NCBI GenBank assembly: GCA_043803015.1
Contig: JAZDKK010000026.1
Coordinates: 20,707 to 84,706, forward strand
From: Verrucomicrobiota bacterium
GTDB taxonomy: Bacteria; Verrucomicrobiota; Kiritimatiellia; CAIQIC01; JAGNIJ01
Direction of reading: 5' to 3'
DNA length: 64,000 nucleotides
How positions within the stretch are numbered: position 1 is the stretch's first letter; each line of letters starts with the position of its first letter. Below are positions 3,882-55,357 of this stretch, in pieces. A model generated the notes under the pieces. The model did not search any database. It was not told the origin of the DNA and worked only from the letters and a program-made list of their open reading frames with translations. A program made the translations under genes and the position numbers.

Positions 3882-4079
3882 ATGATGGATGCGCATGCCA
3901 AAGAGACCGCGGAGTCGGGCGAACTGATGTACGTGAAGTGCGCCTACTGCGGCAAGTGGATGGACGTGAAGCCCGGTCACCTGCACTGGGTCAGCCACGG
4001 CCTTTGCGAGGACTGCCTCAAGAAGGAACTCGAGAAGGCGCGCGCCATGATTCCTCCGGAACAGACCCCCGCTTCGTAG
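3882..4079 (+). CDS. Small putative zinc-binding protein (CxxC...SHGxCxxC)
   Basis: CAYC...SHGLCEDC; coding-like codon usage; divergent from the amidohydrolase. Confidence 0.7.
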   Translation: MMDAHAKETAESGELMYVKCAYCGKWMDVKPGHLHWVSHGLCEDCLKKELEKARAMIPPEQTPAS

Positions 4080-4084
4080 ACCCC

Positions 4085-4184
4085 CGCTCGCCTCGGCGTA
4101 GCCTCCGGCGAAGCCCGGGCGGCCGGTTCGCCTGCCCGCCCTCGCTCGCCAAGCGAGGGAGCAGGCGGGGAGAACCGGCCCTAC
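4085..4184. repeat. Composite REP-like element with nested mini-hairpins
   Basis: 36-bp unit CGCTCGCCTCGGCGTAGCCTCCGGCGAAGCCCGGGC at 4085-4120, then GGCCGGTTC...GAGAACCGGCC-CTAC with CCTGCCCGCC...GCAGGCGGG (4131-4169) in its loop. Confidence 0.75.
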
Positions 4185-4193
4185 CCTTAAGGC

Positions 4194-21594: not shown

Positions 21595-22467
21595 ATGCAG
21601 AAGGTGATCGAAAAAGCTGAAGTGCTGATCGAGGCGCTTCCGTATATCCAGCGCTTCCGGGGCGATGCCGTCGTCGTCAAGTTCGGCGGCAGCGCCATGG
21701 AGGACAAGCTGAACGTGCAGACGGTCCTGAAGGACGTCGCCTTCATGGAGTGCGTCGGCCTGCGGCCCGTCCTGGTGCACGGCGGCGGCAAGGCGATTTC
21801 CCAGCGGATGAAGGACGCCGGCCTGCGGCCGGTCTTCGTGAAGGGCCTGCGGGTGACCGACGAGGATTCGATCAAGATCGTCCAGCAGGTGCTGAACGAG
21901 GAGGTCAACCCCGAGGTCGTCCAGACGCTGGAGGATTTCGGCTGCAAGGCCCGGGGCATCCACGGCGAACACATCTTCACGGTGGTCAAGCACACGGAGA
22001 AGGACGAGCAGACCGGCGAGGAGCTGGACTGGGGCTACGTGGGCGAGGTGGTCGCGGTGGACCTCGAGCCGGTCCGGGCCTACCTCCAGGCCGGCATCAC
22101 GCCCGTCATCACGCCGCTCGGGACGGACAAGGACCGGCGGCTGTACAACGTGAACGCCGACGAGGCGGCCGCCGCCGTGGCGCGGGAGCTGAAGGCCCGG
22201 AAGCTGGTGTTCCTGTCCGACGTCCCCGGCCTCCTGGAGAACCGGGAGGACCCGACGTCGATCCTGTCGACCCTCAAGCTGAGCGAGGTGGAGGACCTGA
22301 TCGGGCGCGGCGTCATCGACGGCGGAATGCTCCCGAAGGTGAACGGGGCCATCGGGGCGCTGAAGGCCGGCGTCAAGAAGACGCACATCATCGACGCCCG
22401 CATGCCGCACTCGCTGCTGCTGGAGCTGTTTACAGACAAAGGTGTGGGGACAGAAATAGTCCAATGA
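21595..22467 (+). CDS. argB: Acetylglutamate kinase
   Basis: EALPYIQRF, VVKFGGSAM, VHGGGK, GLRVTD, NVNAD, GGMLPKV. Confidence 0.97.
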   Translation: MQKVIEKAEVLIEALPYIQRFRGDAVVVKFGGSAMEDKLNVQTVLKDVAFMECVGLRPVLVHGGGKAISQRMKDAGLRPVFVKGLRVTDEDSIKIVQQVLNEEVNPEVVQTLEDFGCKARGIHGEHIFTVVKHTEKDEQTGEELDWGYVGEVVAVDLEPVRAYLQAGITPVITPLGTDKDRRLYNVNADEAAAAVARELKARKLVFLSDVPGLLENREDPTSILSTLKLSEVEDLIGRGVIDGGMLPKVNGAIGALKAGVKKTHIIDARMPHSLLLELFTDKGVGTEIVQ

Positions 22468-22513
22468 GTTGCGGCGCCGGGGTTCCCGGCGCTGCGGAGG
22501 AAGGGTTGAGTCC

Positions 22514-34974: not shown

Positions 34975-34981
34975 TTTGCCA

Positions 34982-35172
34982 TAGCCCGGGTAAACCGGGC
35001 TCTACCCGCCTCCGTCCCGTAGAGCCCGCTTCATGCGGGCTACCCTAGCCCGGGTAAACCGGGCTCTACCTGTGTCCATCCCGTAGAGCCCGCTTCATGC
35101 GGGCTACCCTAGCCCGGGTAAACCGCGGGCTCTACCTGTGTCCATCCCGTAGAGCCCGCTTCATGCGGGCTA
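34982..35172. repeat. BIME-like array: three 64-bp units of inverted REP pairs
   Basis: Units start at 34982, 35046 and 35110: AGCCCGGGTAAACCGGGCT-CTAC / linker / GTAG-AGCCCGCTTCATGCGGGCT. Confidence 0.88.
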
Positions 35173-35239: not shown

Positions 35240-35332
35240 GGAGGGGTGGCTGAGTGGTTTAAGGCACTCGACTCGAAATCGAGAGAGCTGTGAAGAACGG
35301 CTCCGTGGGTTCAAATCCCACCCCCTCCGCCA
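35240..35332 (+). tRNA. tRNA-Ser(CGA)
   Basis: Acceptor GGAGGGG/CCCCTCC, G73, encoded CCA; anticodon stem CTCGA/TCGAG with loop CT-CGA-AA; long variable arm; GGTTCAAATCC T-loop. Confidence 0.97.
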
Positions 35333-36735: not shown

Positions 36736-36766
36736 CGTCTTCTGCGTAGTGCGTTGCGTGTCCTGG

Positions 36767-36851
36767 GTAGGGACGGCTCTCCGAGCCGTCCGCCCAGGCT
36801 CCGCCCGAGGCTACGCCGAGGTGAGCGGCGCGCTCGGAGAGCGCGCCCTAC
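36767..36851. repeat. GTAG REP doublet with the 36-bp unit between its arms
   Basis: GTAGGGACGGCTCTCCGAGCCGTCC - [36792-36827, reverse complement of the 36-bp unit] - GCGCGCTCGGAGAGCGCGCCCTAC. Confidence 0.75.
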
Positions 36852-37690
36852 CTCAGACCTTGTTGGGAATTGCCCCCGCTCGCTCTTCTCTGCCGCACCG
36901 CCTCGTAGAGCAGGATGGTCGTGGCGGTGGCCACGTTCAGCGAATCCGCCTGGCCCAGCATCGGGATCCGAACCTTCGCATCGGCGTTCTTCATCCACGG
37001 TTCGCTCAGGCCGTACTGCTCCGACCCGACGACGAACGCGCTGCCGCGCGCCAGGTCCGCGGCGGTGTACTCCGTCCCGGCATGCGGCGTGGCCGCGATG
37101 ATCTGGATGCCCCGCTCCCGGAGCCAAGCCAGGGCCTCGGCGGAGGACGCTTCGACGACCGGCACCGAGAAAAGCGTGCCGATGCTGGCGCGGACGACGT
37201 TGGGATTGCTGATGTCCGTGCACTGGTCGCAGACGATGACCGCGTCGGCACCGGCCGCATCCGCAGACCGGAGGATCGTCCCGAGGTTGCCGGGCTTCTC
37301 AATCGCCTCGGCGACCACGATCAGGGGGGCCGGCGACTTGATATCGAGGTCCGCCAGGGCGGTCCGCACCTGGGGGCCGACGGCCAGGAGCCCTTCCGGG
37401 CGGTCGCGGTACGCCATTTTCTGGAAGACGGCGTCCGTACACTCGAAGAGCTCCGCGCCGGCCGCCCCCGCCCGCTCGACGATCTCGGGCTCGTTCTTAC
37501 CAAGGTAGAGGGCAGGGCAAAAGAAGAGGGCGGCGGGTTTCCAGCGGTTGTCCAGCGCACGCTTCACCTCGCGGTACCCCTCCACCAGCAGCAGGCCCGC
37601 GTCGTCGCGGTGGGACCGCTTGTTCAGCTTGATGACCTCCTTGACCCGCGGGTTCTGGAGGCTGGTAATCGGCTGTGGTTTCGCGGGCAT
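36848..37690 (-). CDS. TrmH/SpoU-family RNA 2'-O-methyltransferase
   Basis: ITSLQNPRVK, LVEG.RE, EKPGNLGTILRSADAAG, VGSEQYGL, IPM.G.ADSLNVA. Confidence 0.93.
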   Translation of the reverse strand: MPAKPQPITSLQNPRVKEVIKLNKRSHRDDAGLLLVEGYREVKRALDNRWKPAALFFCPALYLGKNEPEIVERAGAAGAELFECTDAVFQKMAYRDRPEGLLAVGPQVRTALADLDIKSPAPLIVVAEAIEKPGNLGTILRSADAAGADAVIVCDQCTDISNPNVVRASIGTLFSVPVVEASSAEALAWLRERGIQIIAATPHAGTEYTAADLARGSAFVVGSEQYGLSEPWMKNADAKVRIPMLGQADSLNVATATTILLYEAVRQRRASGGNSQQGLR

Positions 37691-42668: not shown

Positions 42669-42753
42669 GTAGGGGCGCTTGTGCTTGCCTCGGCGAAGCT
42701 CGGAGAGCGAAGCCGGGTCAAGCGCCCTGGGCGCTTCGCAGAAGCGCCCCTAC
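42669..42753. repeat. GTAG REP doublet with a nested GAAGC hairpin
   Basis: GTAGGGGCGCTT...AAGCGCCC...GGGCGCTT...AAGCGCCCCTAC; a variant of the 36-bp unit at about 42683-42717 sits in the first loop. Confidence 0.7.
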
Positions 42754-53330: not shown

Positions 53331-53461
53331 GGTTTTCCTCCCCCCCTTTTCAGGGCTCGGTCGTGCGCTGTTCGGCAGGATAGCGTCCGCCCGCCGCCGC
53401 TTCAAAGACAAACGGCGCGCGCAGATTGCCCGCCGCCCCAATTGCCGCTAGACTTCCGGCG

Positions 53462-55357
53462 ATGAACCCCAGGCGACCCTCGAAAGCCTTCGTGCTGGCG
53501 GCCGGACTCGGCACGCGCATGCTGCCGCTGAGCCGCGACCTGCCGAAGCCGCTTATGCCGCTCTGGGGCAAACCCGTCCTCCAGCACACGCTCGAGCTCC
53601 TTCGCCGCTGGGGCGTGAAGGACGTGGTCATCAATCTGCATCACCTGCCGGGCGAGATCCTGGAATTCGTCCGGCACAACCCGGTGCCCGGACTGCGGAT
53701 CAGCCTCTCGCACGAGCCGGACATCCTCGGCACCGGCGGCGCGCTCCGCCGGGCGGCCTGGTTCCTCGGCGACGCCCCCTTCTGGCTGATCAACGCCGAC
53801 ATCGCCCTCGACCTGAAGCCGGATGCCCTCGTGAAGAAGTTTGCCGGCGGCAGGTACCTAGCCGCCGTCTGGCTCGATGAAATGCGGGGCCCGCGCACGG
53901 TGGAGATGAAGCGCGGCTGCGTGACCTCGTTCGAGAGCCGGCGCCCGGGCCGCGCCGGAACATACACCTTCTGCGGACTTCACCTGCTTTCCCCCAGAAT
54001 CCTCGATTTCCTTCCGGCCGAAGGCTTCGCAGGGATCATCCCGGCCTACGAACTCGCGATGAAACGGGGCGAGCGCATCGCCGGCGTGTGCGTGCCCGGC
54101 TCGTTCTGGGCCGACCTGGGAACGCCCGAGCAGTACCTCGAGGCGCATCGCAGAAAAGGGGAGCGCGCATGGATCGGATCGAACGTGACGATCGAACGCG
54201 GGGCCCGGGTGGTCGATTCGGTGATCTGGGATGGCGCGCACCTTGCGGCGCGCGCCCGGGTGCGGCACGCCATTGTCGGCCGGGACACACGGGTTGAAGG
54301 TTTGGAGGACTACATCGCCATGCGCGCAGACCGCGCCTTGGACGCGCAGGAAGCCGCAGCGCTGGAGACGTGCGGCTGGCCGATGGAGCATCTGACCGCC
54401 TGTCCGCTCGGCGCCCGCGGGTCCGCGCGCACGTTCACGCGGATCAGGCGGGGACTCCGAAGCATCATCCTGATGCGCTACAGCCTCGAACGCGCGGAAA
54501 ACGGGCTGTACTGCGCGCACGCGCGTTTCCTTGACCGGCTGGGCCTGCGCGTTCCGAAGGTGTTGCTGGACCGACCGGTGGACCGGCTCGCCCTCCTGGA
54601 AGACCTCGGCGCGACGTCGCTCGAGGACGAGGTCCGCCGGCGGCCGGTTCAGCAGGTCCGACAGCTCTACCGCCGCGTGCTGGACCAGGTGCTGCTCCTC
54701 CACGGCGCCGGCGCCCGGGCCGCGCGCCGCTCGCCTCGGCGTAGCCCCGGGCGAAGCCTGGGCAGCAAGCTTCCCCTCATGCCGCCGTTCAGCGCCGATC
54801 TCTACCGGTGGGAGCGCGACTTCTTCGCGCGTCAATTCCTGGAGCTTCATCTTCATCGGCCGGCCGGCGAAATCCGCGGTATCCGGCGCGACCTGGCGTG
54901 TGTTGCGGCGCGTCTTCTCCGGGCGCGACCCGTCCTGATTCACCGCGACCTGCAGTCCAGCAACATCCTGCTGCCGGGCGGCCGGCCCGCCTTCGTGGAC
55001 TTCCAGGGGATGCGCATGGGCGCGGCCGCGTACGACCTGGCTTCGCTGCTCTGCGACCCGTACGCCGGCCTCGCCCCGCACCTGCAGGAGGAGCTCCTGG
55101 AGTACTACGCCGCGCGCGCGGATGACGGCGCCGCCGCACGCCGCCTCTTCTGGTGGGCGGCCATCGAACGGCTCGCGCAGGCCCTCGGCGCGTACGCGCG
55201 GCTGAGCCGGTTGCCCGGCATGCAGTCGTTCCGCCGTCACATGCCGACCGCCCTCGCGACCCTCCGGCGAGCCCTCGGCCGCGTGCCCGGACTGCCTTGT
55301 CTGCGCCGCTGGGCGGACGCTCTGGCCGCGCCGGGGAACGCCATTGACACCCCATGA
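53462..55357 (+). CDS. Fusion of a MurU-like nucleotidyltransferase and an AmgK-like anomeric sugar kinase
   Basis: N-terminal AFVLAAGLGTRMLPLS..LPKPL, VINLHH, EPDILGTGG, INAD, W.DLGTPE.Y. C-terminal GS.R.F.RI, LLEDLG, IHRDLQSSNIL, VDFQG...G...YDLASLL.D. Confidence 0.85.
   Translation: MNPRRPSKAFVLAAGLGTRMLPLSRDLPKPLMPLWGKPVLQHTLELLRRWGVKDVVINLHHLPGEILEFVRHNPVPGLRISLSHEPDILGTGGALRRAAWFLGDAPFWLINADIALDLKPDALVKKFAGGRYLAAVWLDEMRGPRTVEMKRGCVTSFESRRPGRAGTYTFCGLHLLSPRILDFLPAEGFAGIIPAYELAMKRGERIAGVCVPGSFWADLGTPEQYLEAHRRKGERAWIGSNVTIERGARVVDSVIWDGAHLAARARVRHAIVGRDTRVEGLEDYIAMRADRALDAQEAAALETCGWPMEHLTACPLGARGSARTFTRIRRGLRSIILMRYSLERAENGLYCAHARFLDRLGLRVPKVLLDRPVDRLALLEDLGATSLEDEVRRRPVQQVRQLYRRVLDQVLLLHGAGARAARRSPRRSPGRSLGSKLPLMPPFSADLYRWERDFFARQFLELHLHRPAGEIRGIRRDLACVAARLLRARPVLIHRDLQSSNILLPGGRPAFVDFQGMRMGAAAYDLASLLCDPYAGLAPHLQEELLEYYAARADDGAAARRLFWWAAIERLAQALGAYARLSRLPGMQSFRRHMPTALATLRRALGRVPGLPCLRRWADALAAPGNAIDTP

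Follow-up and report, generated by a model that had tools for sequence, protein, structure and literature searches.

A gene in a 64,000-nt stretch of a Kiritimatiellia genome bin (Verrucomicrobiota bacterium, assembly GCA_043803015.1, contig JAZDKK010000026.1, positions 20,707 to 84,706 of the forward strand; hereafter, the window) carries a 33-nt insertion that lies in frame within the part of the gene encoding an AmgK-like kinase domain and that matches a repeat dispersed through the same genome. The gene (53426..55357, forward strand), identified from its open reading frame (ORF), Pfam and Foldseek, encodes a fusion of a MurU-like nucleotidyltransferase, a left-handed β-helix and an AmgK-like (APH-fold) sugar kinase. 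The insertion (54730..54762, ±1 nt, forward strand), delimited by alignments and boundary shifts, contributes 11 codons, SPRRSPGRSLG. The inserted piece is a discrete 33-nt module (hereafter, the unit) that in this genome normally fills the spacer of GTAGGG-hairpin doublets, and not the palindromic element itself. The genome is a 2.15-Mb bin of 84 contigs, 66% complete and with 65.7% G+C, in which the kinase gene lies on a 100.9-kb contig.

A preliminary description made from the sequence alone had pointed to a 36-mer at 54728-54763 (forward strand) with 33 of 36 identities to intergenic copies at 4085-4120 (forward strand) and 36792-36827 (reverse strand). This identity is exact, with three mismatches to each copy, and none of 100 dinucleotide-preserving shuffles yielded a chance match to the 36-mer. 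The similarity to the second copy (36792-36833) extends over 42 nt (54722-54763) at 93%. The 36-mer is read in frame as RSPRRSPGRSLG, between ...LLHGAGARAAR and SKLPLMPPF, and was taken to be an insertion of exactly 12 codons. Its in-frame character was borne out but its length was not: the true insertion is 33 nt rather than 36, because the initial CGC (Arg) is part of the native, conserved AARR. The boundaries of the insertion can be shifted by 1 nt in either direction since GC is present at both ends, and deleting 33 nt at offsets of -1, 0 or +1 restores AARR-SKLPLMPPF, matching the AARR-(A/S)RLPLMPPF of orthologues. The insert-free kinase junction would read GCGCGCCGC joined straight to AGCAAG.

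Comparison with 17 orthologues of relatives and 119 database homologues (136 in total) shows that the segment is absent from all of them, so that the gap anticipated by the preliminary description is present throughout, albeit of 11 rather than 12 residues. Counted from the H of LLLHG to the F of MPPF, the distance amounts to 19 residues in 115 of the 119 database homologues and to 17-18 in the other four; the 30 residues seen here are unique among the 119 and the query, and no orthologue has an equally long loop at this position. The converse possibility, that the repeat derives from the kinase gene, was rejected, since the segment is missing from every homologue and the unit occurs widely. 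No relative with more than 62% identity was found among 5.8 billion proteins or in the genome collection, and the insertion event can therefore not be dated by comparison. The linker of the kinase copy (54747-54749) is CCG instead of the TCC of most copies, encoding Pro-Gly instead of Leu-Arg, and CCG was not seen among the other unit copies listed. Since this linker differs at two bases, the kinase copy is probably not brand new.

The fusion ORF comprises 643 aa when read from a TTG start, and the database model comprises 631 aa from the ATG at 53462. Pfam matches NTP_transferase at residues 20-243 (2.1e-20) and APH at residues 327-572 (3.1e-16), with a hexapeptide-repeat stretch between the two domains. 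Consistent with this architecture, Foldseek aligned the first half of the AlphaFold model with MurU (4Y7U; template modelling [TM] score 0.87-0.89) and the second half with the AmgK-like structure 3CSV (TM score 0.79), and several homologues of the fusion are named N-acetylmuramate 1-kinase at JGI. Named homologues of the protein assign the organism to Kiritimatiellia. With its predicted APH fold, HRD loop and MurU partner, the host protein has the features of an AmgK-type anomeric sugar kinase. In Pseudomonas, the MurU-like uridylyltransferase and the AmgK-like kinase are encoded by separate genes; the fusion, with its β-helix linker, is kept in all 119 aligned database homologues and in most of the relatives examined.

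In the AlphaFold model, which has a mean predicted local distance difference test (pLDDT) score of 95.2, the only segment scoring below 50 (residues 428-434 of the 631-aa model) lies within the insert, and the surrounding secondary structure consists of a helix (396-423), a coil (424-444) and a second helix (445-463). The insert is, in this model, a disordered coil loop between two helices some 60 residues before HRD, in agreement with the loop location proposed from sequence in the preliminary description. The HRD catalytic-loop codons (54941..54949, forward strand) are intact. H494, R495 and D496 are invariant in 119 sequences, and all family-invariant residues are kept in the protein with the insertion. 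Because the insert falls in a disordered coil and the invariant catalytic residues are intact, the enzyme is probably still functional with its 11-residue loop.

To characterize the source of the unit, we considered its copies elsewhere in this genome. There are four further close copies, three of which lie inside GGTAGGG-hairpin ... hairpin-CCCTACC doublets, at 36766-36852 of the window and on contigs C51 and C65. The doublet in the window (36766..36852, reverse strand) is an 87-nt repetitive extragenic palindrome (REP) doublet, made up of a GGTAGGG-hairpin, the unit (36792-36827) and a hairpin-CCCTACC. An intergenic composite element (GTAG...CCCTACC; 4076..4186, forward strand) starts at the stop codon of the upstream gene and contains the unit at 4085-4120 and, beyond it, a nested hairpin. 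The genome holds about 40 GTAGGG-hairpin doublets resembling REPs or bacterial interspersed mosaic elements (BIMEs), the commonest being 54 nt long with a CGCG spacer, and a filled doublet (87 nt) equals an empty doublet (54 nt) plus 33 nt. None of these roughly 40 full doublets lies in a same-frame coding context in this genome.

The preliminary description had attributed the insertion to a palindromic DNA element that adds peptide loops to an enzyme. What stands of this proposal is that a foreign segment from a dispersed repeat has added a loop while keeping the frame; what does not is the palindrome, since the insert lacks the GTAGGG hairpins and folds no better than shuffled sequences (z about 0). 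In DNA folding against shuffles, the doublet and the composite element fold significantly better (z = -1.9 for 36766..36852 and -3.1 for 4076..4186), whereas the unit alone gives z values of -0.44 to +0.08, indicating that the kinase gene received a non-palindromic spacer module. The GTAG hairpin and the inverted REP pair are absent from the kinase insert and its flanks, and only the spacer is present.

The unit has a well-defined architecture. Its consensus is CTCGCCTC-GGCGNAGCC-YNN-GGCGNAGCC-YGG-G, where each GGCGNAGCC is GGC GNA GCC, and its copies can be represented by the pattern CTCGCCTCGGCGNAGCCYNNGGCGNAGCCYGG. In the kinase gene, the two GGCGNAGCC segments are GGC-GTA-GCC (54738..54746, forward strand), containing GCGTAGC, and GGC-GAA-GCC (54750..54758, forward strand), containing GCGAAGC. 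The heptamer GCGNAGC forms the so-called mini-hairpin DNA, which is extraordinarily stable (Tm 70-76 °C) with GNA loops only, N being any base (PMC13037366), and it occurs twice in each unit. Length is the same in 149 of 150 unit copies. Among copies with no more than three mismatches anywhere, variation concentrates at positions 13 and 25, in the linker (positions 19-20 of the unit) and at position 30 (Y30). Positions 13 and 25 are the loop-middle N of the two motifs, where T, A, G and C all occur. As the freely varying bases are exactly the loop-middle bases, the conservation pattern is indicative of a constraint acting on single-stranded DNA in its folded form. The GCGNAGC heptamer as such is not over-represented in the genome.

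The ends of the unit (CTCGCC... and ...CCTGGG) are not inverted repeats, as they would be in a miniature inverted-repeat transposable element. The bare coding insertions in AmgK, in pyrF, in hisF and at locus L037 share a common span to within 1-2 nt, and in these four delimited cases target duplication amounts at most to a GC dinucleotide repeated at the ends. Five of the six reading frames of the unit are open, and all six are open when the first loop N is not T.

A second case in the same genome is provided by hisF (contig C76:8395-9171, L188, outside the window), whose product reads AIDARRNP-ASPEATPG-LRWTV. The DNA at this site, CCGGCTTCGCCGGAGGCTACGCCGGGGC, is identical to the reverse unit over 22 uninterrupted nt; hisF here carries an older, second copy of the unit core, in frame. 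In related genera, 7 of 24 orthologues have this loop position filled (+21 to +33 nt) and the others have it empty. The copies at this site have diverged, and filled and empty sites are intermixed even inside single genera, a patchiness suggestive of either an insertion hot spot or precise loss on several occasions.

Nearly identical in-frame copies are also found in conserved genes of other uncultured bacteria. Among the matches listed, 22 of the 64 metagenomic copies with enough flanking sequence have a frame that stays open over 60 or more codons to either side. Random positions of the same contigs fall in such open frames in 61% of cases, so that unit copies do so about half as often. The coding copies among these matches use five of the six frames, and copies in the frame where a T at the first loop N would create TAG all have A or G there (5 of 5). 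Homology confirms an insertion in PyrF (GIR-T[RLGEASGAAW]AGAEK), with an 11-residue excess over 3LDV, as well as in IspH, LeuRS, DUF2961, Zn-ADH and NuoN proteins, in the linker of an ECF sigma factor, in a secretin and in a GFO/IDH/MocA oxidoreductase. At L037 (Lentisphaerae bin, JACPGM010000069), a bare unit in reverse orientation adds PGSAGGYAEAS relative to the Kiritimatiellia orthologue. The same protein, of ~620 aa, has a second repeat-like insert, GCPWPSSGPSSSGSAGLRRAGGP, which is absent from the orthologue L035. Finally, in a relative (G008, contig C83; L021 / L027:664-3240, reverse strand), a 126-nt GGTAGGG...CCCTACC doublet with the unit and 39 further nt in frame account for a 55-residue insert that lies between transmembrane helices in a spermidine-synthase-like protein of 858 aa; none of 120 homologues has these residues.

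The unit is also distributed across distant genomes. When one genome of every prokaryotic species was scanned for the exact pattern, 13 loci were obtained, distributed over 11 bins with the labels Patescibacteria, Gammaproteobacteria, Rhodospirillales, Lentisphaerae, Verrucomicrobiota and Kiritimatiellia, the unit-bearing contigs ranging from 46% to 67% G+C with unrelated flanks. Within the phylum, the unit is present in only five of 401 genomes, in up to 10 copies each (10 in G226). A metagenome scan yielded at least 120 stretches with the unit. BLASTN searches of plasmid and phage collections produced no match and a scan of IMG/VR produced a single contig, so that we do not consider the unit to be typically borne by phages or plasmids. 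Rfam, run on the whole window at gathering thresholds, reported only a tRNA, and the unit therefore corresponds to no known RNA family. No description of the unit was found in the full-text literature, in which 12-mers of the unit returned chance primer matches only; more general searches led to papers on Rickettsia palindromic elements and REPs, none of which treats the unit.

With respect to local context, 34% of copies lie between perfect locus-specific stems of at least 6 bp, compared to 2.7% of control positions. These contexts include apical loops of REPs, terminator-like stems and BoxC-like elements. Insertion at palindrome centers was nonetheless rejected as a rule, given that the best stem at the kinase site is 2 bp, and a candidate palindrome at pyrF was dropped because stems of at least 5 bp occur at ~7% of random control positions, placing it within chance.

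Other small hairpin modules were observed alongside the unit. At metagenome loci L116 and L134, the unit occupies the loop of a BoxC-like hairpin of purine and pyrimidine runs (CCCTCACCCC..CCCTCTCCCA [unit] TGGGAGAGGG), where, to judge from the nested arrangement, one small repeat family has invaded another. The unit and a second module (CTTGTCCGCCATAGC...GCGACGGCGGAAG) are nested within one another in either order (contig C77:42634-42783 of this genome; L063, L079, L092, L113 and L129), and a related module, CTTGCCTCGGCGAAGC-TCGGAGA-GCGAAGCCGGGTC, is present at 42669-42753 of the window. Small hairpin modules seem to stack inside each other's loops. In addition, three tandem 64-66-nt GTAG-type hairpin repeats (GTAGAGCCCGCTTCATGCGGGCTAC...) are located at 34979-35172 of the window, just upstream of a tRNA gene (35240-35329).

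On balance, and without great confidence, we favor the interpretation that the unit is a non-autonomous, ultra-short mobile element moved in trans and with unit precision as folded single-stranded DNA. In such a scheme, the two GCGNAGC mini-hairpins would be recognized as folded single-stranded DNA and a hairpin-specific enzyme, most likely a Y1 (HUH) transposase of the IS200/IS605 or REP-associated tyrosine transposase (RAYT) type, would paste the unit in trans. The putative "peel-and-paste" chemistry would leave no target duplication and would re-use the left-flank sequence of the donor (here GCGCGCCG) as a target. Insertions into tolerant loops would then survive selection, since a length of 33 nt is divisible by 3 and all but one of the six frames are open. 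An enzyme-mediated process is favored by the fixed length and common span of the unit, its unrelated flanks, its hairpin-shaped conservation, the stems that enclose a third of its copies and its presence in bins labelled as several phyla, as well as by the lack of duplication beyond GC and by six Y1_Tnp matches in this genome. One of these, an IS200/RAYT-like Y1 gene (22010-22477, within C48:21850-22790 of this genome), has a degenerate copy of the unit 17 nt beyond its stop codon and lies amid CCCGGGGC-GNN-GCCCCGGG hairpins whose loops are of three bases, for example GAA. We considered this transposase as the partner of the unit, but its homologues in other genomes occur without the unit and it constitutes only a weak lead. 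A possible DUF559 partner was discarded, as the single DUF559 gene (contig C62) is flanked by BoxC-like purine-rich repeats and not by the unit.

Several observations weigh against movement in trans as folded DNA. No neighboring gene is common to 19 unit loci and no enzyme is linked to the unit. The copy-richest relative, G226, has no close homologue of the C48 Y1 gene, and in G394 and G397 the homologues of this gene are flanked by other hairpins. No left-flank motif is conserved across genomes, and the kinase site lacks a flanking stem (best 2 bp), unlike a third of the unit copies. ViennaRNA assigns the unit no special stability; its parameters, we assume, may not credit GNA loops. Furthermore, four cases, none of them a high-identity filled/empty pair, underlie the target rules and the lack of a target duplication, and the phylum labels are those of genome bins, which can be contaminated.

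The principal alternative, which we regard as the less likely of the two but as a credible one, is a microhomology-primed template switch or a short-patch ectopic conversion requiring no dedicated enzyme. While the kinase gene was being replicated or repaired, a nascent strand ending in GCGCGCCG would anneal to the identical sequence at the foot of a REP doublet, copy the 33-nt spacer until stopped by the second REP hairpin, and return to the kinase gene. The native Ala-Arg-Arg codons to the left of the insert, GCGCGCCG (54722..54729, forward strand), which could represent either a target motif or microhomology, are identical to the left flank of the unit in three of the four intergenic copies of this genome. 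This 8-nt junction (9 nt with the ambiguous C) involves an 8-mer with a genomic frequency of 2.4e-4 per position, and in those donors the copied segment ends exactly at the start of the second REP hairpin. The hisF site, CGGCCCGGC, resembles sequence beside the unit in doublets, and the patchy filling of hisF is as expected of a homology hot spot. The shared left flank does not in itself separate the two interpretations, because IS200/IS605 peel-and-paste would also generate it. A template switch, however, has only ~2 nt (GC) of homology available for the return. It also leaves unexplained the identical unit boundaries despite different flanks in other genomes, the insertions with unrelated flanks (L037, LeuRS, IspH and NuoN) and the spread over bins of several labelled phyla.

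It is improbable that a whole REP doublet with its unit was inserted and that both arms were later deleted to leave an in-frame 33-nt remnant. The complete 126-nt doublet in frame in the G008 membrane protein provides a precedent for its first step, and the left arm could be lost through a direct repeat of GCGCGCCG(C), but two precise deletions restoring the native AARR and SKL flanks exactly would be needed, and bare 33-nt insertions of the same span recur elsewhere. Mis-assembly of the 33 nt at a repeat, which might be suspected in a 66%-complete bin of 84 contigs, is very unlikely, because the kinase copy has three differences from each of the other copies in the assembly, keeps the frame exactly, lies on a long contig and has parallels in independent JGI, ENA and NCBI assemblies.

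The relationship between the unit and known repeats can be defined by comparison. Rickettsia palindromic elements (RPEs) are palindromes of ~100-150 bp. Repeat DNA of this kind lies in frame in functional protein genes, according to the works that cite its original report (Ogata et al. 2000, as cited in PMC3733652 and PMC10969869). Like RPEs, the unit occurs within and between genes and is read through as an extra, probably surface-exposed, peptide, and its in-frame, peptide-adding insertion into genes that are probably still functional corresponds to what is described for them. In contrast to RPEs, which are confined to Rickettsia and relatives, it is only 33 nt long, forms no significant palindrome (the z values given above) in place of a long hairpin, and is found in bins labelled as several phyla. 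The RPE analogy drawn in the preliminary description is hence apt for the outcome, as illustrated by in-frame units in many conserved genes, hisF and the G008 doublet, and probably does not extend to membership of the RPE families.

Also comparable are the intragenic GTAG REPs, most numerous in Opitutus terrae, which are GTAG-tagged hairpins and dimers, some of them contained wholly in ORFs and encoding 7-30 residues (PMC3733652, Di Nocera et al. 2013). Their hosts, like those of the unit, include members of the Planctomycetes-Verrucomicrobia-Chlamydiae (PVC) group, and the whole doublet of G008 is a case of that kind. The kinase insert, unlike them, lacks the GTAG hairpin and is the spacer module between two REPs. 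The peptides encoded by O. terrae REPs (e.g., VGPALAAG) are unrelated, and those of the unit were not found in the supplement of PMC3733652. The unit appears therefore to resemble RPEs and intragenic GTAG REPs in outcome and to belong to neither.

The doublets of this genome, with either a short spacer (CGCG, 54 nt) or a long ~33-nt motif (87 nt), recall the S and L motifs of BIMEs. In E. coli, BIMEs are said, following Gilson and Bachellier, to be inverted pairs of palindromic units (PUs) with short or long extra-PU motifs. The L motif of E. coli BIMEs is an IHF site. We know of no report of this motif inside genes or in other phyla, whereas the unit also occurs alone, in the loops of unrelated hairpins and inside coding regions. 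BIMEs are summarized in PMC2817692.

Insertion sequences of the IS200/IS605 family and RAYTs encode Y1 (HUH) enzymes that act on single-stranded DNA hairpin substrates without target duplication, the left flank of the donor being equal to the target (PMC2817692, PMC3116915, PMC6006769). The unit may be comparable to non-autonomous IS200/IS605 elements of the palindrome-associated transposable element (PATE) kind: hairpin motifs are present, no duplication is seen, and the left flank, GCGCGCCG, is shared within the genome, though not across genomes. It differs in lacking a sub-terminal hairpin pair at separate ends and a GTAG foot, and in showing no consistent association with a Y1 gene across genomes. 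With mini-hairpin DNA the unit shares two exact GCGNAGC heptamers in which N varies freely among natural copies. Such hairpins have been discussed at phage and plasmid replication origins and in applications (PMC13037366, Hirao and co-workers), from which the unit differs as a dispersed repeat inserted in genes.

A more far-reaching and tentative possibility, to which we assign less than even weight, is that the unit, made up solely of two GCGNAGC mini-hairpins and short arms, is among the smallest mobile DNAs, moved in single-stranded form by a hairpin-specific enzyme and crossing phyla. Being 3 x 11 nt long and almost free of stop codons, it would be frame-neutral and would act as a general writer of 11-residue loops in essential enzymes such as AmgK, HisF, PyrF, IspH, LeuRS and NuoN. 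Selfish repeats residing in protein-coding genes have been described chiefly in Rickettsia and some other groups, as long palindromes. If the unit is truly mobile, it would set a new lower size limit for mobile DNA and would represent a natural source of small loop insertions in proteins. Its two well-characterized mini-hairpins offer a testable substrate for finding the enzyme that moves REP-like sequences. In annotation, furthermore, units of this kind explain odd low-complexity inserts, such as SPRRS..., LASAKPPAQPG, RLGEASGAAW and PGFAGGYAEAS, in otherwise conserved proteins.

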